Assembly (NCBI RefSeq): GCF_036507355.1
Contig: NZ_AP027877.1
From: Escherichia coli
GTDB taxonomy: Bacteria; Pseudomonadota; Gammaproteobacteria; Enterobacterales; Enterobacteriaceae
DNA length: 64,000 bases
Reading direction: 5' to 3' (one strand)
The notes under the pieces are model-generated. The model saw only the letters and a program-made list of their open reading frames with translations. It had not been told where the DNA came from and did not search any database. Each line of letters begins with the position of its first letter. The stretch's first letter is position 1. The translations under genes and the position numbers were made by a program. Of this stretch, positions 1,605 through 57,106 are shown one piece after another.

Positions 1605-4406
1605 TTATTCGACGTTCAGCGCGTCATTAACCAGATCTTGTTGCTGTTTCTGGTGAACGGACATATACCCTACCGCCGGAGAGGCGGAGGCCGGGCGGCC
1701 TGCATAACGCAGAGAAGCCCCAAACGGAATCACTTCACGGAAATGATGCTGGCTGCAGTACCATGCGCCCTGGTTGAGCGGCTCTTCCTGGCACCAGACA
1801 AAATCCTTGACGTGAGCAAACTGCTGCAACACTTCCTGCATCGCTTTATGCGGGAACGGGTAGAGTTGCTCGATACGCACAATGGCGACATCGTGTTGAT
1901 TGTTCTTACGACGCTGTTCCAGCAGGTCGTAATAAACCTTACCAGAACACATCACTACGCGCTTCACGCCCTTCGGATCAAGCTCGTCGATTTCACCGAT
2001 GGCTGGCAGGAAGGTGCCGTTCGCCAGTTCTTCGAGGCTGGAAACCGCCAGCGGATGACGCAGCAGGGATTTCGGCGACATCACGACCAGCGGACGACGC
2101 ATCCCGCGCAGCGCCTGACGACGCAGCATGTGGTAAACCTGTGCCGGGGTAGACGGTACGCAAACCTGCATGTTTTGCTCAGCACAAAGTTGCAGATAAC
2201 GTTCCAGACGCGCGGAGGAGTGCTCCGGCCCCTGCCCTTCGTAACCGTGCGGCAGCAACATCACCAGCCCACACATCCGGCCCCATTTCTGTTCGCCAGA
2301 GGAGATGAACTGGTCGATAACCACCTGCGCGCCGTTGGCGAAGTCACCGAACTGCGCTTCCCAGATAGTCAGAGTGCGTGGTTCTGCGGTGGCATAACCG
2401 TATTCAAACGCCAGCACTGCTTCTTCAGAAAGTACGGAGTCCCAGACACGGAACGCGCCCTGGCCGTTATGAATATGTTGCAGCGGCGTGTAAGTAGAAC
2501 CGTTAGACTGATTGTGGATCACCGCGTGGCGGTGGAAGAAGGTACCGCGACCGGAGTCTTCACCCGACAGGCGAACCGGAATGCCTTCATCAACCAGCGT
2601 GGCGTAAGCGAGGTTTTCCGCGCCGCCCCAGTCGAACAGTTTCTCACCGGCAGCCATCGCCTGGCGATCGCCATAAATCTTGGCAACGCGAGACTGCATT
2701 TCAACTGCTTCCGGCACCGTGCTGATGCGTTTCGCCAGCTCCTGCAGGCGCTTCATCTCAACTTTGTTCGGGTACTCTTCGTCCCATTCGTGGTTGAGGT
2801 ACGGCGACCAGGTGAAAGAGTGCATGTTCATCGGACGCCACTCTGCCACTACGCAATCGCCAGCATCCAGCGCATCGCGGTACAGGTTAACCATCTCGGT
2901 GGCATCTTCCAGCGTCGCCACTTTTTCCTGCTCCAGCTTGTCAGCGTAGATTTTGCGCGGTGTCGGATGTTTTTTGATTTTCTGATACATCAGCGGCTGG
3001 GTTGCGCTCGGCTCGTCGGCTTCGTTGTGGCCGTGACGGCGGTAGCACACCAGGTCGATGAAGACATCACGTTTAAAGGTGTTACGGAAATCGAGCGCCA
3101 GACGGGTCACAAAGGCAACGGCTTCCGGATCATCCGCGTTAACGTGGAAAATCGGTGCCTGAACCATCTTACCGATATCAGTACAGTACGGTGTAGAACG
3201 GGCATCCAGCGGGTTAGAGGTGGTGAAGCCAACTTGATTGTTGATAACGATACGTACCGTACCGCCAACTTCATAACCACGCGCTTTCGACATGTTCAGG
3301 GTTTCCTGAACCACGCCCTGCCCGGTCACTGCGGCGTCACCGTGGATGGTGATTGGCAGCACTTTGTTGCTGCTCGGCTCATCAAGTCTGTCCAGACGGG
3401 CACGAACAGAGCCGATAACAACCGGGCTTACAATCTCAAGGTGAGACGGGTTAAACGCCAGCGCCAGGTGTACCAGGCCGCCATCGGTCTGGAAGTCAGA
3501 CGAGAAGCCCATGTGGTATTTCACGTCACCCGTGCCGAGGTGTTCTTTATGTTTACCGGCGAACTCGTCGAACAAGTCTTGCGGTTTTTTACCCAGCACG
3601 TTCACCAGCACGTTCAGACGACCACGGTGCGCCATCCCGAGAACCACTTCCCGGGTGCCGCTGTTGCCAGCGTGGCGGATCATCTCTTTAAGCATCGGGA
3701 TTAACGCGTCACCGCCTTCCAGCGAGAAGCGTTTTGCACCAGGGAATTTTGCACCGAGGTAACGTTCAAGGCCTTCAGCGGCGGTCAGTTCGCTTAAGAA
3801 GCGTTTTTTCTCTTCGCTATTGAAAGTCGCGCGACCAGACTCGATACGCTGTTGGATCCAGCGTTTTTCTTCGGTGCTGGTGATGTGCATATACTCGGCA
3901 CCAATCGGGCCGCAGTAGGTTTGCTTGAGGGCTTCCAGCAGCTCGCCGAGTTTCATGGTTTCTTTGCCGCTGGCAAATGAACCGACGTTGAAGGTCTCCT
4001 GGAAGTCTGCTTCGGTCAGATCGTGGAAAGACGGATCCAGATCGGCCACTTTATCTTGCTGCCACAGTCCCAGCGGATCGAGATTCGCATGCTGGTGACC
4101 ACGGAAGCGGTATGCGTTAATGAGCTGCAGGACTTTAACCTGCTTCACATTGGTGTCAGGGTCGGAGATCGTTGAAGAGTAACGTGAAGCGTCTTTCGCC
4201 AGGCGGCGGAAATATTCACGAGTTTGAGAGTGGAATTGATCCGGTTTGACTCCCGTACCAGGTAACTGCTGGAACGTCGAACGCCAGTTAGCGTCAACCG
4301 AGTCAGGATCGGTTAAGAAGTCTTCATAGAGCTGTTCTATCCAGCTCTGGTTTGCGCCAGAGAGGTAAGAAGAGTCCAACCAGGCTTTCAAAGCGCTGTT
4401 CTGCAT
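1605..4406 (-). CDS. sucA: 2-oxoglutarate dehydrogenase E1 component
   Basis: 933-aa [33 protein letters not shown]...; full-length SucA. Confidence 0.97.
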
Positions 4407-4585
4407 CGTGATCCCTTAAGCATCTTTTTTATGCTTACTTCGCCGTGGATACTACCACGCACAGTGATGTGCGTGCCGGGGTTCACTTGCGAGCTCTTGT
4501 CTACGTAGTGGCTCGCGAAGGAACCTTTAAAAACTGTCTTAGTGTCAGGGGCAGTTTTTAAAGATTTCCTGCATTTCTTTGTTAC

Positions 4586-4704
4586 GCCTGATGCGCTGCG
4601 CTTATCAGGCCTACGGGTAATGACTTGTAGGCCGGATAAGACGTTCACGCCGCATCCGGCACTGGTTGCCTGATGCGACGCTTGCGCGTCTTATCAGGCC
4701 TACG
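4586..4704. repeat. REP/BIME cluster (three REP units) in the sdhB-sucA intergenic region
   Basis: Imperfect palindromic units of the type gcctgatgcg...cttatcaggcctac and gtaggccggataag...gccgcatccggca, repeated in alternating orientation. Confidence 0.6.
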
Positions 4705-5438: not shown

Positions 5439-7205
5439 TTAGTAAGTACGAATCTTCGGCGGGAATGCCGGGCGCAGTTTCGGTTCCATGTTGACGCTTC
5501 GGCGCGTCATGGATTCCGACTCTGGCAGATACAGGGAGTGGCACAGCCAGTTTTCATCATCACGATCCGGGAAGTCGAAGCGGCTATGTGCGCCACGGCT
5601 TTCGGTACGGAAGTTGGCAGAAACAGCCGTTGCATACGCCGTTTCCATCAGGTTATCCAGTTCCAGGCACTCAACGCGCTGGGTGTTGAACTCGCTGGAA
5701 GTGTCATCCAGACGGGCATTTTTCAGACGCTCGCGGATAACTTTCAACTGCTCAAGCCCTTTCGCCATCGCATCACCTTCACGGAAGACCGAGAAGTTAT
5801 GCTGCATACATTCTTGCAGCGCTTTACGAATCGCCACCGGATCTTCACCGTTACGATTATTGTTCCAGCGGTTCAGACGATCCAGAGACGCTTCAACATC
5901 AGACTCGCTGGCATCGCGCAGTGCGCCCTGCTCGGCGATAGACTCTTGCAGATGCAGACCTGCCGCACGACCAAAGACCACCAGGTCCAGCAGCGAGTTG
6001 CCGCCCAGACGGTTAGCGCCGTGTACCGATACACAAGCGATTTCACCTACCGCGAACAGCCCCGGAACAACCACATCTTCGCCTTTCTCATTCACAGTCA
6101 GCGCCTGACCGGTAACTTTGGTCGGAATACCGCCCATCATGTAGTGACAGGTTGGGATAACCGGAATCGGCTCTTTCACCGGATCAACGTGAGCGAAGGT
6201 ACGGGAAAGCTCCAGGATACCCGGCAGACGGGATTCGAGAACTTCTTTACCCAGGTGATCGAGTTTCAGTTTCGCGTGTGGCCCCCACGGACCATCACAG
6301 CCGCGACCTTCACGGATTTCGATCATGATGGAACGCGCCACCACATCACGGCCCGCCAGGTCTTTGGCGTTCGGCGCATAACGCTCCATAAAGCGTTCGC
6401 CATGTTTGTTCAGCAGATAACCGCCTTCACCACGGCAACCTTCGGTGACCAGTACGCCCGCACCGGCAATGCCGGTCGGGTGGAATTGCCACATTTCCAT
6501 ATCCTGCACCGGTACACCTGCACGGATAGCCATGCCGACGCCGTCGCCAGTGTTAATGTGGGCGTTAGTGGTGGACTGATAAATACGCCCTGCTCCGCCA
6601 GTCGCCAGCACGGTAGCGCGGGCTTTGAAATAAACCACTTCACCGGTTTCGATGCACAGTGCGGTACAACCCACCACCGCGCCATCCTGGTTTTTCACCA
6701 GATCCAGCGCATACCACTCAGAGAAAATGGTGGTGTGGTTTTTCAGGTTCTGCTGATAAAGCGTGTGCAACAGTGCGTGACCGGTACGGTCAGCCGCTGC
6801 CGCAGTACGTGCCGCCTGCTCGCCGCCGAAGTTTTTCGACTGACCGCCAAACGGACGTTGATAGATACGACCATCATCAAGACGCGAGAACGGCAGGCCC
6901 ATGTGTTCGAGTTCCAGAATCGCTTCCGGCCCGGTTTTACACATATATTCAATCGCGTCCTGGTCACCGATATAGTCCGACCCTTTCACGGTGTCGTACA
7001 TATGCCATTCCCAGTTATCTTCATGGGTATTACCCAGCGCAACGGTAATGCCGCCTTGCGCAGAAACGGTATGGGAACGGGTCGGGAAGACTTTAGAGAG
7101 CAGCGCACAGGTCTGGCCGCTCTGGGAAATTTGCAGCGCCGCGCGCATACCTGCGCCGCCGGCACCAATCACAACTGCATCAAATTCTCTGACTGGCAAT
7201 TTCAT
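5439..7205 (-). CDS. sdhA: Succinate dehydrogenase flavoprotein subunit
   Basis: Track ORF 5439..7217 begins [26 protein letters not shown]...; start placed at MKLPVREF, giving 588 aa; FAD-binding GAGGAG motif. Confidence 0.96.
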
Positions 7206-22050: not shown

Positions 22051-22165
22051 GCCTGATGCGACGCTTAACGCGTCTTATCAGGTCTACGTATTTCCTGCAA
22101 TTTATTGAATTTGCACAAATTTGTAGGCTGGATAAGGCGTTTACGCCGCATCCGGCATCTGGGCT
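22051..22165. repeat. REP/BIME units between convergent dtpD and phr
   Basis: gcctgatgcgacgcttaacgcgtcttatcaggtctac and gtaggctggataaggcgtttacgccgcatccggca palindromic units. Confidence 0.6.
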
Positions 22166-24109: not shown

Positions 24110-24339
24110 TACTGCTCCTGAGATATTAACAGGAGTAAGTGTAGACGTTGGGAAATGATTTTTGTGAAGTTAATCCGCTAGCAGGGCAAGATTACGAAAG
24201 CGCGCTCCCCGCAAGCAACTCATCAAGGTAGTTAATCATGGCTTAACACGATATTACGCCAGAAGTCACCATTTCCAAAACACAGCGCCGCTATAAAGTC
24301 GGCTATGTCAGAGCCCGCCACATAAACAGCAAAACCTAC

Positions 24340-24567
24340 ATGACCACGTACTACTCACGACACCCCTGCCTGAACCTTAAGGGCGACTGGCTGAAAGAGG
24401 CCGGATTTGATACCGGGCGGGGTGTCACGGTGAAGATTTCGGAGGGGTGCCTGACCATTATCGCTGACAGTGACGAGGTGCAGGAGCTGCGGGAGGAACT
24501 TTATCAGGTTAAACAGGTGGTTAAGGGGATACGGAGCGGGATGTTTAGTGTGCTGGACGAGAGTTAA
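24340..24567 (+). CDS. SymE-like small protein (SymE/AbrB-fold type I toxin family); possibly N-terminally truncated
   Basis: 75-aa ORF MTTYYSRHPCLNLKGDWLKEAGFDTGRGVTVKISEGCLTIIADSDEVQELREELYQ... resembles the SymE core (..[33 protein letters not shown]..). The in-frame upstream sequence still looks SymE-like but has no start codon before the stop at 24244. Confidence 0.6.
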   Translation: MTTYYSRHPCLNLKGDWLKEAGFDTGRGVTVKISEGCLTIIADSDEVQELREELYQVKQVVKGIRSGMFSVLDES

Positions 24568-24572
24568 ATAAT

Positions 24573-24612
24573 AAAAAAGCCGGGAAGATGTTATTTTCTT
24601 CCCGGCTTTTTT
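24573..24612. terminator. Bidirectional rho-independent terminator shared by the SymE-like gene (+) and the Rhs immunity gene (-)
   Basis: gccgggaag-(10 nt loop)-cttcccggc stem flanked by an A run on one side and a T run on the other. Confidence 0.75.
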
Positions 24613-24904
24613 AAAGTTTATTTATAGCTTGGTTAATTTCAAATAATAATGAGACAATATCTTTCGCAGAACCATTATAAATGGGGGTATCCCAATCAAA
24701 GTCCTTTATTAAACAAATATAAAAATTCCCATTTAAATTAAAAGATGGTCGCCACCCAACATCCAAAAGATACCCACCAGGATATTCAACTTGGAGCATA
24801 TCTTCCTTAAGTTCATCTCGCTGTTCATTAAGAGGGATGCTTTGTTTCAGGGAGAAGTCATTAAAAATTACATTCCCTTTTTTTCCTAAGAAATCAATGT
24901 TCAT
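24611..24904 (-). CDS. Putative Rhs immunity protein (cognate to the toxin tip immediately upstream)
   Basis: 97-aa AT-rich ORF MNIDFLGKKGNVIFNDFSLKQSIPLNEQRDELKEDMLQVEYPGGYLLDVGW...; its ATG overlaps the toxin stop (ATGA at 24901-24904). Position and composition are typical of rhsI genes; no family assignment was possible. Confidence 0.6.
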   Translation of the reverse strand: MNIDFLGKKGNVIFNDFSLKQSIPLNEQRDELKEDMLQVEYPGGYLLDVGWRPSFNLNGNFYICLIKDFDWDTPIYNGSAKDIVSLLFEINQAINKL

Positions 24905-26151
24905 GGTGTTGTTAGCCTTCGGAATTCATCAAGTGATATGGGATGTCCATGTATTGTCCCACCGCTAAGTTCAACTCGAACCCATTGAGATTCTTTACCC
25001 TCACTGGCCCCAATAACTTTCCCCATATCTTTTACTTTCCATGGTTTACCGTTGGTAACAGGTGTGCCTGTATTAAAAACATCGTATTCCAGCGTTTTAA
25101 TATCAATATCGGGAGAATATTTTGCCGGGCCTGATTTTGTTGATTTAATTATATCCTTCCATGATTTGTTTTTTGGAGGAAAATGTTTGTATCCATGATT
25201 TGTCCATTCAGGTTGCCCACACTTTAAACCTAACGGGTCGATCCACCCCAACGGATTCGGCGCGTATTGGTATAAATTTAATCCACCAAGCAGCCCTATC
25301 GGATCCGTTACCATGAACCGCCCGACATCCGGATCATAGTACCTGTGCAGATTGTAGTGCAGCCCCGTTTCCCTGTCGAGGTACTGTCCCTGGTAGCGCA
25401 GGTTCTGCTCCACCCTGCCGTGGTCCTTCTCCTGTATCGTGTTACCCCAGACCTGATACCCCGTCTCCCACACGATTCTCCCGTCGCTGTCCGTCATCTC
25501 TTCCGGCGCACCGTTCACATCCGTGTGAAAATACAGTATCCGGTTCGGGCCCTCTTTGCCTGCCTTATCCACCCGCGCCAGCGGTTCATAACTCCCCGGG
25601 TCCCTGTAGATGTACAGGCTGCCTGTTCCCTCCGGCCTGCTCTCCTGCGCCAGCCGCATTCCGTCCCATAAAAATTTTGTCCGGTTGTACGGTTTACCGT
25701 CAGGGCTGATGTGCTGTTTTTCCGTCCGCCTCCCCAGTGCATCGTACACATACCGGTATGCCCCCCGCGCTGTCGTCACTTCCACCATCCGGTGTTCCGC
25801 ATCATAACGGTAACTCTGCGTTCCGCTCCGGCCCTCCTTTTCCACCGCACGGCCAAATTCGTCATAACGGTAGTGCACACCACGGTAAGACATCAGCCGG
25901 TTGAACGGCACCACGCTGTTTTCTGCCGTGGCCCTTTCCCCCGCGCGCCTCCCCAGCAGGTTTCCCGCCGCGTCGTACTGCCAGCTCGCCAGATACCCCT
26001 CATCCTCCGAACGGCACGCCGTGATGCGCCCCGTGGGGTCGTAGAAGTAATCCGTTTCCCCCCGCCGGCTGTGCCGCGTCTTCAGCAGTTCATCCTCGCC
26101 ACTGTAGCTGTACTGCCGGTCCGTGAACGTCTCCGGTACCACCCCGCGCAT
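24901..26151 (-). CDS. Rhs protein, C-terminal part: end of YD-repeat core, PxxxxDPxGL motif and a 107-aa toxin tip. Same frame as the upstream fragment, separated from it by an in-frame TAG
   Basis: ORF contains YD repeats (YRYDEFGR, YRYDAEHR, YVYDALGRR) and the hallmark YYDPDVGRFMVTDPIGLLGGLNLYQYAPNPLGWIDPLGL, followed by a low-GC tip KCGQPEWTNHGYKHF...TIHGHPISLDEFRRLTTP. Frame arithmetic: the TAG at 26221-26223 is in frame with this ORF. Confidence 0.85.
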   Translation of the reverse strand: MRGVVPETFTDRQYSYSGEDELLKTRHSRRGETDYFYDPTGRITACRSEDEGYLASWQYDAAGNLLGRRAGERATAENSVVPFNRLMSYRGVHYRYDEFGRAVEKEGRSGTQSYRYDAEHRMVEVTTARGAYRYVYDALGRRTEKQHISPDGKPYNRTKFLWDGMRLAQESRPEGTGSLYIYRDPGSYEPLARVDKAGKEGPNRILYFHTDVNGAPEEMTDSDGRIVWETGYQVWGNTIQEKDHGRVEQNLRYQGQYLDRETGLHYNLHRYYDPDVGRFMVTDPIGLLGGLNLYQYAPNPLGWIDPLGLKCGQPEWTNHGYKHFPPKNKSWKDIIKSTKSGPAKYSPDIDIKTLEYDVFNTGTPVTNGKPWKVKDMGKVIGASEGKESQWVRVELSGGTIHGHPISLDEFRRLTTP

Positions 26152-26220
26152 CCCGCTGTATGTCTCCCTGCGCTTCAGCCGCCCGCCGGGGTCGTAAAGC
26201 TGCCGCGTGCTCAGTCGCCC

Positions 26221-28380
26221 CTAGCTTCTGAGCACCTCACGGTGCAGGTGGTCGCGCGTGAACTCGCTGATGACCTCCCGGTCCAGATTTATCTGCTGGA
26301 GATGGCCGCTGCCGTAGTACAGATGGCGCTGCGTTCTGCCGTCCGGAAAGGTGGTGGCAGTCCGGTTGCCCAGTTCATCGTACTGGTGGGTCAGGATGCC
26401 CTGCGCCGTCTCCTCGCTCAGCATCCGCCCCAGTCTGTCGTAGCTGAAGCAGATAACTTCCGGCGCGTCAGTTTCGTGCCGCTGGCGGCGGATTTCACCG
26501 CCCCGGTCCCCGGTGAACACCACTTCCGTGACCGCGTTCAGCGCGTTGTAGCGGTACGACTGGCGGCAGCCGTCCGGATTTATCTGCTCCGCCAGACGGT
26601 CCAGCACGTCATGGCGGAACCGGTAGCGTTCTCCGTTCTCGTTCGTGAGCGTGACCAGACGCCCGTAAGCGTCGTACCCGAACGCCGTCCTGCGCCCCAT
26701 CGCGTCCGTCCGGCTGCGCACCCGGCCCTGCCCGTCCCGCTGCCAGCGCGTTATCCTCCCCATCGGGCTGGTGTACTTCACCAGACTGCCCGCCGCGTCT
26801 GACTGGTAATTCACCGTGCGGCCGTCCGCCAGTATCACCTCCGTCAGATGACCGCTGTCGTCATACCCGTAGCGCGTGCTGTGGCTCTCCGCATCCGTCA
26901 TTCTGATAAGCCGCGTGCGTTCGTCGTAGAACCACGCCGTCTGCGAGCCGGAGCAGTCCGTGTGCCGCATGAGCTGCCCGTCTTCATTCCACTGGAGGTG
27001 TTTATTCCCCCCGCGCGCATCCGTTATCTGCACCACCTGGCCGTGGTGGTCATACTGATACCGGGTGTTCTGCTGCAGCGGGTCGGTCACGGCAAGAAGG
27101 TTGCCGCGTTCATCGTACACACAGCGCCAGGTGTTTCCCGCCGCGTCCACCTCCGTTTCCGGCTGGTGCCACACCGGGTGCCACTGTGTCTGCGCCACCC
27201 GCCCCAGCGGGTCGTGCGTCTCCGTGATATGCCCCTGCCGGTCATACACATAGCGCCATTTGCCGCCCTGAGGGTCGGTCATCCCCAGCAACAGTCGTTC
27301 TTCGTCGCTCCAGCGGAATGTCGTCACCTGTCCGGCTTCGTCCTGGTACGCCGTCACCTGATTCTGCGCATCCCACTGGTGATAACGTGTGCGCCCCAGT
27401 CCGTCCGTCACGCACAGCCTGCGCTGCGCCAGGTCCCACGCCAGCCGGTACTGTTCACCGCTGTCCGTGTGGTGCCCCGTCACCCGCCATGCCGCGTCAT
27501 CCGGACCGTCATACCAGCCCCACTGGTAATAATACCCTTCGCCGCCCGGCTGGCGGTGCAGCGTCATGCAGTGGTTTTCGTCGTAAGCAAACTCACGCAG
27601 CAGGTGCCCCGTGCTGTCGTACACGCCGTTCAGGTGGCCGGCCTCGTCATAGCTGTAACGACGCAGCAGTAAAGGTGCAGTCTCAGGGAAATGCTGATAA
27701 ATCTGTGTCACCCGCCGGGGATGCGCCGCCAGTTCGTAATACAGACGGATGCACGGACGCTGCTGTTCGCCGCTGATTTCCACAATGCGGCCCCGGTCGT
27801 CGTAGTACAGATTCAGACAGTTGCTGTTACGGTCGCCCAGCATTTTCAGCCGCTGGCGCTGCGGGTGGTGCGGGTCGCCTTCAAACAACCAGTGGATACC
27901 ATCATCGCTGCTGATAAGCCAGTGCCCCTGCTCACCACGCCTTACCGCCAGCCCTTCACCGGGGCTGTAAAACCCGCCCCCCGGCAGTACGGCTTCCATA
28001 TCCAGGCGTCGCCCCATACCCGACACAAAGGTCATGCAGTTTTCGTCTGCGCCACCCGGCAATACAAATGCCACCTGACACTGGTACACCTGCTCGTTAT
28101 CACGGAGAAACTGGCTCTGTATTTCCAGCCCTTGTTCACCGTCATTAATCCCTACCCGTGTTACCTGAACTGGCGTGTAGTGAAGATCCTTTACCTGTTT
28201 CTCCAGTTTTTTCATTTGCTGTTCAATCTGGGAGGCTAATTCGTCTCCTTCCTGCATCTGGCCCCGACTGATAATGAGTGCAGCGTCGGGATCGCTGAGG
28301 CGCAGCATATTAATAGTGCTGTCCTGAATAATATTCCCGGGAAAAGTTACAACAGTTTCATTGAGATAATACTCCGTCAT
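26221..28380 (-). CDS. Rhs protein, N-terminal part: DUF1795-like N-terminal domain plus YD-repeat core, ended by an in-frame amber codon (probable pseudogene or disrupted gene)
   Basis: 719-aa ORF. Core shows classic Rhs repeats (YQYDHHGQVV, YGYDDSGHLTEV, FGYDAYGRLV) and ends ...FTRDHLHREVLRS*, where intact Rhs proteins continue ...TRDRLHRETLRSFG.... Confidence 0.85.
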   Translation of the reverse strand: MTEYYLNETVVTFPGNIIQDSTINMLRLSDPDAALIISRGQMQEGDELASQIEQQMKKLEKQVKDLHYTPVQVTRVGINDGEQGLEIQSQFLRDNEQVYQCQVAFVLPGGADENCMTFVSGMGRRLDMEAVLPGGGFYSPGEGLAVRRGEQGHWLISSDDGIHWLFEGDPHHPQRQRLKMLGDRNSNCLNLYYDDRGRIVEISGEQQRPCIRLYYELAAHPRRVTQIYQHFPETAPLLLRRYSYDEAGHLNGVYDSTGHLLREFAYDENHCMTLHRQPGGEGYYYQWGWYDGPDDAAWRVTGHHTDSGEQYRLAWDLAQRRLCVTDGLGRTRYHQWDAQNQVTAYQDEAGQVTTFRWSDEERLLLGMTDPQGGKWRYVYDRQGHITETHDPLGRVAQTQWHPVWHQPETEVDAAGNTWRCVYDERGNLLAVTDPLQQNTRYQYDHHGQVVQITDARGGNKHLQWNEDGQLMRHTDCSGSQTAWFYDERTRLIRMTDAESHSTRYGYDDSGHLTEVILADGRTVNYQSDAAGSLVKYTSPMGRITRWQRDGQGRVRSRTDAMGRRTAFGYDAYGRLVTLTNENGERYRFRHDVLDRLAEQINPDGCRQSYRYNALNAVTEVVFTGDRGGEIRRQRHETDAPEVICFSYDRLGRMLSEETAQGILTHQYDELGNRTATTFPDGRTQRHLYYGSGHLQQINLDREVISEFTRDHLHREVLRS

Positions 28381-57031: not shown

Positions 57032-57106
57032 TGGGGTATCGCCAAGCGGTAAGGCACCGGATTCTGATTCCGGCATTCCGAGGTTCGAATCCTCGTACCC
57101 CAGCCA
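57032..57106 (+). tRNA. glnX: tRNA-Gln (anticodon CUG), second copy
   Basis: Identical to the glnV sequence. Confidence 0.93.

Follow-up and report, generated by a model that had tools for sequence, protein, structure and literature searches.

A probably lineage-fixed, decaying rhs pseudogene between ybfA and ybgA of Escherichia coli, with an eagR'-'rhs fusion and an internal amber codon

In the 64-kb stretch of Escherichia coli DNA analysed here (the window), the gene for an Rhs protein is interrupted by an in-frame TAG. Is this codon an error, a stop that the cell reads through, a recent mutation in an otherwise intact gene or one lesion among several, and is the toxin encoded beyond it still in use? 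Comparison with orthologous loci makes it very probable that the locus is a decaying rhs pseudogene, fixed in its lineage and carrying at least two shared inactivating lesions. As a decaying pseudogene it would be an ordinary one.

The minus strand reads ...CTC AGA AGC TAG GGG CGA CTG..., with the TAG at 26223..26221. The open reading frame on its 5' side (28380..26221, minus strand) is 2160 nt long, or 719 codons plus the TAG, and the same frame continues on the 3' side for 1320 nt, or 439 codons plus TGA (26220..24901, minus strand). The first ATG after the TAG, at 26151, opens a 416-amino-acid reading frame, and the 23 codons in between encode GRLSTRQLYDPGGRLKRRETYSG. Recomputing the frame gave the same relationship as had been described in the initial annotation, these 23 codons included. 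A tblastn search with the intact Rhs protein of E. coli CUWW06 (1544 residues) returned one high-scoring pair across the stop, spanning residues 448–1544 at 94% identity. The two reading frames are parts of one gene and not chance neighbours.

Table 1. Coordinates of the rhs remnant, its lesions and neighbouring features in the window.
Feature	Position	Strand	Basis or remark
symE-like type I toxin gene	24238..24567	+	TAA at codon 3 (24244..24246), GAA in the intact orthologue
isrA sRNA gene, full length, antisense to symE-like gene	24309..24437	-	Rfam RF01385
Putative immunity gene, intact, 97 aa	24611..24904	-	overlaps rhs stop codon
Rhs C-terminal part, 439 codons + stop: shell end, RHS core/plug, PxxxxDPxGL motif, toxin	24901..26220	-	
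C-terminal toxin domain, 107 aa	24904..25224	-	phmmer against PDB
Sigma-70-like site TCGACA-17-TACAAT, inside rhs, 3' of TAG	25351..25379	-	predicted, sequence scan
Premature amber stop TAG	26221..26223	-	from CAG (Gln), codon 1105 of intact Rhs
Rhs YD-repeat shell fragment	26224..28056	-	residues ~455-1104 of intact protein minus 38 codons
Junction of 105-bp (35-codon) in-frame deletion	26489..26496	-	between GAAATCCG direct repeats (8 bp)
Junction of 1,512-bp (504-codon) in-frame deletion	28050..28059	-	blastn against L001
EagR/DcrB-family (DUF1795) T6SS chaperone gene, 5' remnant, codons 1-108	28057..28380	-	Pfam, collinearity
glnV and glnX, tRNA-Gln, wild-type CUG anticodon	56920..56994, 57032..57106	+	ARAGORN

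At the intact orthologous locus L001, the codon corresponding to the TAG is CAG, for Gln. With paired 30-mers, one for each allele and chosen such that every match must include the codon, the CAG version was found at 217 places in 118 of 5,426 complete E. coli genomes and the TAG version in none of the 5,426. Judged by this distribution, TAG is the derived allele and Gln the ancestral residue. The change is a C-to-T transition, CAG to TAG, fixed in one E. coli lineage. The residue replaced is not Phe, as had been supposed: Gln is encoded in the 118 genomes and is present in Photorhabdus Rhs1, and the RhsC-type paralogue of K-12, with 29% identity, is alone in having Phe where the stop lies. 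Looking for TTY or TAY at 26221–26223 of orthologous loci, as had been proposed, would have misled, as the orthologues show CAG. On the 3' side of the TAG, 14 synonymous and three non-synonymous differences separate the window from the intact orthologue. This supports the earlier view that the nonsense mutation is recent and the split not an ancient one, and points to purifying selection on this segment until recently; together with the perfectly conserved toxin and immunity region, the ratio would also fit a 3' end that is still under selection.

It had also been considered that the organism has a continuous gene and that the TAG arose as an error of sequencing or assembly. A single base separates the TAG from the orthologues, and the exact 719-residue product is unmatched in the assembly collection, as such an error would predict. 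However, an identical 61-mer containing the TAG is present in seven assemblies from seven different samples or runs (one from NCBI, six from Logan), so the stop, at a position where orthologues have a sense codon, is reproduced in independent sequencing and this cause is ruled out as an explanation of the TAG. The 719-residue product is unmatched because of the 105-bp deletion and an R532S change, both private to this genome, and not because of the TAG; for the 416-residue reading frame, an exact product match was found. All 20 flanking core genes, which serve as a control, are full length and free of stops and frameshifts, and the core genes of the window are about 99% identical to those of complete E. 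coli genomes. We regard an error as scarcely credible.

The TAG is not the only lesion in an otherwise intact Rhs gene, contrary to what the initial annotation had assumed. Of the 719 codons, the first 108 are not rhs sequence but come from the chaperone gene next to it. Residues 18–108 match Pfam DcrB (PF08786, E=2.7e-13), and the remnant is collinear with the 150-residue 'DcrB-related protein' encoded in E. coli CUWW06 as far as ...VAFVLPG; it now provides the start codon of the 719-codon frame. The transition into rhs is the junction of a 1,512-bp deletion, at which eagR codon 108 is followed by approximately rhs codon 455, with CCGGGT as the microhomology. In a blastn alignment to L001, the matching pieces stop at position 4453 and resume at 5955 with a 10-nt overlap, and CCGGGT is located at 4443 and 5955. 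A 51-mer across the junction is present in all six related assemblies that are long enough to span it, while no genome of the 5,426 complete E. coli genomes matches across it. An ISEc1/H-repeat insertion carried by some strains at this locus was considered as a marker of the breakpoint and rejected, as it sits upstream of eagR and not at the junction.

In the orthologue, the deleted N-terminus matches PAAR_motif (E=1.9e-5) and DUF6531 (E=2.7e-17), and shows a weak prePAAR_I match with a visible AARQGDxLLH motif. The deletion removes prePAAR, the transmembrane helices, PAAR and DUF6531, and the window thus has none of the N-terminal arrangement (prePAAR, transmembrane helices, PAAR) of a class I prePAAR effector of a type VI secretion system (T6SS). 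Nor is there a separate, complete Eag chaperone gene upstream, 108 of its 150 codons being left and fused in frame to rhs, or a single uninterrupted frame from delivery domain to toxin, given the TAG and the 1,512-bp and 105-bp deletions. Eag chaperones and the prePAAR/PAAR region are needed for loading such effectors onto the T6SS (PMC7773334, PMC8636562). No T6SS genes were found within the 64-kb window. The 1,512-bp deletion and the TAG occur in every relative found (for the junction, the six assemblies long enough), which is compatible with either order of the two events.

What remains of the Rhs protein is readily recognizable. Pfam RHS_repeat (PF05593) has multiple matches between residues 336 and 683, and at least 12 matches with E<=0.001 were obtained on the conceptual translation, as expected for a YD-repeat shell; the shell fragment is 96–98% identical in DNA to the CUWW06 rhs gene. 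The RHS core or plug is located at about 25429..25539 (Pfam RHS, PF03527, residues 948–984, E=5.6e-14), and both a DPIGL... and a ...DPLGL motif are seen in the translation, such that core, cleavage motif and C-terminal toxin follow each other in the usual way. A phmmer search against the PDB matched the toxin domain to residues 1400–1529 of 8qjc_A (E=2e-76, over 127 residues). Neither the toxin domain nor the immunity protein matches a Pfam or NCBIfam family; the toxin was identified by the PDB sequence search alone. The small putative immunity gene lies directly 3' of the toxin domain, and its product is 100% identical to the one encoded downstream of the intact rhs in CUWW06. The same protein (WP_032280515.1) is also kept in E. 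coli TB06052, in which rhs is broken as well.

Within the lineage, further lesions have accumulated. The 105-bp deletion is private to the window, the ...HRLARDAAGRLTAKETADSRTEYVHDAADQLLEIR... segment being retained in seven of seven related assemblies and in L001; it is a slippage loss of about one YD repeat. The deletion and R532S are known from one assembly, and for both an error of assembly or consensus is in principle conceivable, although direct repeats of 8 bp are not long enough to make an assembly collapse. Two sister assemblies (L004 and L007) carry an additional nonsense change, W336*. In total, the point changes within the lineage comprise three non-synonymous, one nonsense and one synonymous change; across the eight genomes, such events are too few for SNP density in the toxin-immunity part to be set informatively against that of the other parts of the remnant. 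Two deletions, the extra stop and this spectrum of changes are the pattern of relaxed constraint, and the decay of the rhs remnant is still going on.

Translation through the TAG, by near-cognate tRNA-Gln(CUG) or by a suppressor encoded elsewhere in the genome, would give a full-length protein, and the ancestral CAG means that Gln inserted at UAG would be exactly the original residue. ARAGORN assigns the anticodon ctg to both glnV and glnX, which are wild type as had been stated, such that no supE-type suppressor comes from them; glnU and glnW are tRNA-Gln(ttg), also with wild-type anticodons, and no tRNA-Gln with a CUA anticodon is found among the tRNA-Gln genes in the window. A full-length product would moreover still be an EagR'-'Rhs fusion without prePAAR, transmembrane domain, PAAR and DUF6531, which would make its attachment to VgrG impossible, and in the sister genomes the second stop, W336*, has been gained upstream of the first. 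A functional protein made by readthrough is a very remote prospect. A different proposal is that the part 3' of the TAG is alive, as an internally expressed toxin-immunity pair similar to a type II toxin-antitoxin (TA) system or as an 'orphan' cassette available for re-arming a different rhs copy through recombination; neither the TAG nor the loss of the N-terminus would then bear on its current role. The toxin and immunity coding sequences are unbroken, the immunity protein is fully conserved and the 14:3 ratio suits selection, although this ratio may predate the inactivation. Genomes with this type of rhs usually have at least two copies, which are possible recombination partners, and orphan Rhs toxins are recruited through recombination (PMC3967940); the window itself, however, has no second rhs copy.

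The promoter required for such internal expression has a candidate in the sigma-70-like site, the best of a 5-kb scan with 10 of 12 matches. In S. Typhimurium rhs, an internal P2 promoter (TTGACG-17-TACAAT) has been verified experimentally and TA-like expression has been described (PMC7043789), and the predicted site is at the homologous position with its hexamers kept. Over 102 bp it shares 75% identity with the P2 segment, whereas the defining paper (PMC7043789) sets the cut-off for P2-like promoters at 80% or more over at least 95 bp. Both hexamers are also codons of the near-universal YLDRETGLHYN motif, which may explain their conservation without a promoter, and promoter-like sites show no excess (six observed versus 4.9 expected after shuffling). 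It is thus unlikely, if clearly less so than an error or readthrough, that selection keeps promoter-like site, toxin and immunity gene as a TA-like module for addiction or growth control, or as a recombination reservoir.

The intact orthologous cassette, also between ybfA and ybgA, consists of eagR, the prePAAR/PAAR-Rhs toxin gene, the immunity gene and a symE/isrA module. In the window, the symE-like gene is 99% identical in DNA to CUWW06 symE and is inactivated by a GAA to TAA change at codon 3, and NCBIfam SymE (NF010128) matches its C-terminal 75-residue reading frame only. The TAA allele is common to L002–L007 and TB06052. The antisense isrA gene scores 112.9 bits with RF01385 (gathering score 51), over model positions 1–129 of 129. 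The ybfA–ybgA locus of TB06052 (NZ_CM129848.1) has the same cassette, immunity protein and symE allele, and likewise suffered an eagR-rhs deletion that ends at almost the same rhs position. It departs from the window in its left breakpoint, at eagR codon 73, and in an out-of-frame fusion; where the window has the TAG it reads CAG, and its symE carries a 1-bp deletion in addition. PGAP annotates partial DcrB-related and partial RHS pseudogenes. The two eagR-rhs deletions are probably independent events.

Class I prePAAR Rhs proteins with an Eag chaperone include Photorhabdus laumondii Rhs1, Salmonella Typhimurium Rhs-main with EagR, and RhsA of Enterobacter and Serratia. The window shares with them the RHS core and DPxGL motif, a polymorphic toxin at the C-terminus and an immunity gene downstream of it, and its intact orthologue also has the upstream eagR and the prePAAR/PAAR N-terminus. 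The window differs in that eagR breaks off at codon 108 and continues as shell sequence, prePAAR, transmembrane domain, PAAR and DUF6531 are gone, one YD repeat is missing and the reading frame ends at the TAG. Photorhabdus laumondii Rhs1 (PDB 7Q97) belongs to the same YD-repeat shell family, with the region of the stop about 60% similar and a Gln aligned to the stop. The C-terminal toxin of PAAR-Rhs A464_2174 of Salmonella bongori N268-08 (PDB 8QJB, 8QJC and 8QJD) is nearly the same protein as that of the window, and the S. bongori immunity gene likewise begins MNIDF..., according to a published primer sequence. An RNase fold was predicted for this toxin by the authors, who found no Pfam or CDD family (bioRxiv 10.1101/2024.02.26.582050). 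In S. bongori, the protein is intact and cleaves itself, whereas the toxin in the window is a sequence match in a broken carrier gene.

E. coli K-12 rhsC (b0700) occupies the same insertion site, between ybfA and ybgA/phr, but its product, with 29% protein identity, belongs to a different Rhs subfamily. It contains the LHRETLRSFG motif from which the residue at the stop had been deduced, with Phe in place of Gln, and the element has no eagR, and H-repeat/ISAs1 and orphan fragments downstream. The Salmonella orphan rhs-CT/immunity modules and internal Rhs TA pairs (PMC3967940; PMC7043789) are likewise delivery-incompetent 3' fragments with intact toxin and immunity genes, and the promoter-like site in the window lies at the position of P2. 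A classical orphan lacks its 5' part and has a full-length rhs upstream of it, whereas in the window decay has affected the main gene in situ.

In the pseudogene reading, which we prefer, the ybfA–ybgA locus would be the remnant of a T6SS Rhs effector cassette. A microhomology-mediated deletion of 1,512 bp would have fused eagR codons 1–108 in frame to about rhs codon 455, a C-to-T transition would have turned the Gln codon into the amber codon, and in this genome the 105-bp slippage deletion and R532S would have been added. Expression of an 83-kDa EagR'-'Rhs fragment from the promoter and start codon of eagR probably continues; the fragment is predicted to have an open shell and to lack both a spike-binding domain and a toxin. 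Loading and delivery by the T6SS would be impossible because spike-binding domain, closed shell and toxin are all missing from this putative fragment. The TAG would then be a real yet secondary lesion in a neutrally drifting gene, and the intact immunity gene would still protect against relatives firing the same toxin.

For annotation, the 719- and 416-residue reading frames should be merged into a single pseudogene (an eagR'-'rhs fusion interrupted by a stop) instead of being listed as separate Rhs proteins; the locus is no candidate for stop-codon readthrough. The TAG and the fusion junction are usable as lineage markers because both are absent from the 5,426 complete E. coli genomes. Beyond correct annotation, the locus has little importance. 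Should the 3' end be a TA-like element after all, the recurrent loss of the delivery half, here and, at an almost identical rhs breakpoint, in TB06052, would represent a route from T6SS Rhs effector to intracellular TA-like element. As a pseudogene, the cassette would be a case of 'lose the weapon, keep the shield': both toxins of the island, Rhs and SymE, are disabled, and what stays intact is the gene for immunity and that for the antisense RNA.

Read directly on the minus strand, the stop lies in the context ...CGT GAG GTG CTC AGA AGC TAG GGG CGA CTG AGC..., ending a run of 719 codons; the same frame then continues for 439 codons. In a tblastn comparison, residues 448-1544 of the intact orthologous Rhs align with the window in a single high-scoring segment pair that crosses the TAG (94% identity), so the two open reading frames belong to a single gene that has been interrupted and do not adjoin by chance. 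The split of an Rhs gene by an in-frame TAG, and the arithmetic behind it, are therefore as proposed in the initial annotation, which had also placed a phenylalanine at the stop position. The orthologous codon in E. coli CUWW06 (Rhs codon 1105, in identical surrounding context) is instead CAG, and glutamine is also present at the aligned position of the solved structure of Photorhabdus Rhs1 (7Q97, ...LHREVLRTQGQIST...). Paired 30-mers containing either version were searched by megablast against 5,426 complete E. coli genomes, a match having to include the codon; the CAG version was found at 217 places in 118 genomes with 100% identity, and the TAG version had no match. Orthologues thus do have a sense codon, as had been suggested, but CAG and not TTY or TAY. 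The mutation is a C-to-T transition from CAG to TAG, changing glutamine to amber. The phenylalanine of the LHRET(L/V)RSFG motif is real in K-12 RhsC, but that paralogue is only 29% identical.

The window spans the chromosome from sucAB-sdh-gltA via kdp to the tRNA cluster holding glnV and glnX, with around 99% identity to complete E. coli genomes and no record that is identical. Two Rfam matches, naRNA4/CssrE and ES036/CssrF, resemble the REP-type elements that commonly lie between E. coli genes. The nearest intact version of the locus, that of CUWW06, has the order ybfA, eagR, rhs, immunity gene, symE-family gene, ybgA and phrB. Its eagR encodes a DcrB-related (DUF1795, Eag-type) chaperone of 150 amino acids, its rhs an "RHS repeat-associated core domain" protein of 1,544 amino acids and the following gene a hypothetical, putative immunity protein of 97 amino acids; the symE-family toxin gene is on the opposite strand. 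At its N-terminus this Rhs has a prePAAR-like motif, AARQGDxLLH, and hydrophobic helices, as well as DUF6531 (E=2.7e-17) and a PAAR motif (E=1.9e-5). These features place it among the class I prePAAR effectors of the T6SS that have an Eag chaperone, a family described before (PMC7773334, PMC8636562). At this position of the chromosome, E. coli K-12 has an rhsC element, which is unrelated. In some strains, such as E. coli L725, an ISAs1-like ISEc1 (H-repeat) transposase gene is located between ybfA and eagR, and the eagR-rhs pair downstream of it in L725 is intact. Lying upstream of eagR, this insertion is unrelated to the deletion breakpoints of the window and was rejected as a marker of them.

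The TAG is not the single lesion it had been taken for. Aligned to the CUWW06 locus, the window falls into three collinear pieces, with 1,512 bp (504 codons) absent between the first two. At the junction, eagR codon 108 (...VAFVLPG) is joined in frame, through a CCGGGT microhomology, to approximately rhs codon 455 (...ADENCMTFVSG). Pfam assigns residues 1-108 of the supposed 719-codon Rhs part to a DcrB domain (E=2.7e-13), supporting fusion of eagR and rhs by deletion. The chaperone C-terminus and the entire prePAAR-TMD-PAAR-DUF6531 region of Rhs have been lost, which is everything known to be required for loading onto VgrG. Each of the six related assemblies that extend over this junction has it, and it has no spanning match in complete E. 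coli genomes. A second in-frame deletion, of 105 bp (35 codons, about one YD repeat), lies between 8-bp GAAATCCG direct repeats. It is private to the window, the segment being kept in 7/7 relatives, and so is R532S when compared with seven near-identical assemblies; the two could have arisen by slippage in this strain or as an artefact of the consensus. The three lesions, the genomes that carry them and the ancestral states are direct observations.

The exact 416-residue product encoded downstream of the TAG matched eight contigs, seven of which were retrieved as loci (L002-L008): six come from Logan assemblies, each of a different run, and one from an NCBI assembly (GCA_905398585.1). An identical 61-mer containing the TAG is present in all seven. 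As a test of assembly quality, core genes were checked over the first 24.5 kb of the window, and none of the 20 is shortened or carries an internal stop. Together these results exclude the sequencing error that had been considered. The other reading, a recent nonsense mutation, holds: orthologues have CAG, and beyond the TAG the window differs from CUWW06 at 14 synonymous and 3 non-synonymous sites, a pattern probably inherited from the time when the gene was functional. The TAG is a genuine nonsense mutation, fixed in its lineage, and the T6SS Rhs effector gene that carries it is crippled by other lesions as well. Among the relatives, further point changes include Q229L (L002), E3G (L006) and a second nonsense mutation, W336*, shared by L004 and L007; only one is synonymous, and the spectrum is that which would be expected for a gene no longer under selection. 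Readthrough or suppression of the TAG would give a full-length product, and insertion of glutamine would restore the ancestral residue. However, the anticodons of glnV and glnX are wild-type CUG, as originally reported, a readthrough product would still be without the delivery domain, and a further stop upstream of the TAG has arisen in sister genomes.

Over its last 107 residues, the rhs product matches the toxin domain in a Salmonella bongori PAAR-Rhs (8QJC, E=2e-76), a domain that has no family assignment and a predicted RNase fold (bioRxiv 10.1101/2024.02.26.582050); neither Pfam nor NCBIfam gave a match for these residues. Residual function of the rhs 3' end, in the form of toxin-antitoxin-like internal toxin expression, is improbable. 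A near-consensus sigma-70-like site, TCGACA-17-TACAAT, the best in a 5-kb scan, falls within the part of rhs that encodes the core. Its position is homologous to that of the experimentally verified P2 promoter (TTGACG-17-TACAAT), which drives such expression from inside Salmonella rhs genes (PMC7043789). Identity to the P2 segment is, however, 75%, below the 80% criterion of that study, both hexamers double as codons of the conserved YLDRETGLHYN motif, and promoter-like sites overall occur at chance level.

Parallel decay is seen in E. coli TB06052, where a different, out-of-frame eagR-rhs deletion starts at eagR codon 73, 108 bp from the corresponding end in the window. Its codon at the TAG position is CAG. 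On the rhs side, the two breakpoints are only a few bp apart, immediately ahead of GACGAAAACTG (...ADENCMTF), where the DUF6531 region ends; this near-coincidence may be chance, or may point to a hot spot or a secondary deletion. TB06052 has the same, intact immunity gene as the window.

In the window, the immunity protein is 100% identical to that of the intact CUWW06 locus, fitting a common pattern in which protection is retained after the weapon is lost. Codon 3 of the symE-like gene, a symE-family type I toxin gene adjoining the rhs cassette, is TAA, compared with GAA in the intact orthologue. The TAA allele is common to the six sister assemblies covering the site and to TB06052, which has an additional 1-bp deletion in this gene. 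With rhs broken as well, both toxins of the small island are knocked out. The gene for the Hfq-binding sRNA isrA (Rfam RF01385) is full length and lies antisense to the disrupted symE-like gene; of antidote RNA and toxin target, only the former is intact. The same arrangement of rhs, symE-like gene and isrA is known from Salmonella SPI-6.

Coordinates of features in the window and in two comparison loci
Feature	Sequence	Position	Strand	Remark
naRNA4/CssrE	window	4630-4700	+	82 bits; sdhB-sucA intergenic region
ES036/CssrF	window	22080-22122	-	70 bits; between dtpD and phrB
symE-like gene	window	24238..24567	+	
symE-like codon 3	window	24244-24246		TAA
isrA	window	24309-24437	-	112.9 bits
Immunity gene	window	24611..24904		
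End of 439-codon part	window	24903..24901	-	TGA
Sigma-70-like site	window	25379..25351	-	
Start of 416-aa ORF	window	26151	-	first ATG after TAG
In-frame stop	window	26223..26221	-	TAG
719-codon ORF	window	28380..26221	-	including TAG
105-bp deletion	window	26489-26496		
R532S	window	26785		
1,512-bp deletion junction	window	28050-28059		
rhs-side breakpoint	TB06052 (L011)	1837-1840		
ISEc1 transposase	L725 (L012)	2515-3651		

If transcribed and translated from the eagR start, the gene would yield an EagR'-'Rhs fragment with a calculated mass of 83 kDa, presumably an open shell with neither spike-binding domain nor toxin, so that the locus would be unable to arm a T6SS. The TAG would then be one of several lesions in a recently inactivated gene, and the locus is an ordinary pseudogene of a kind already known.
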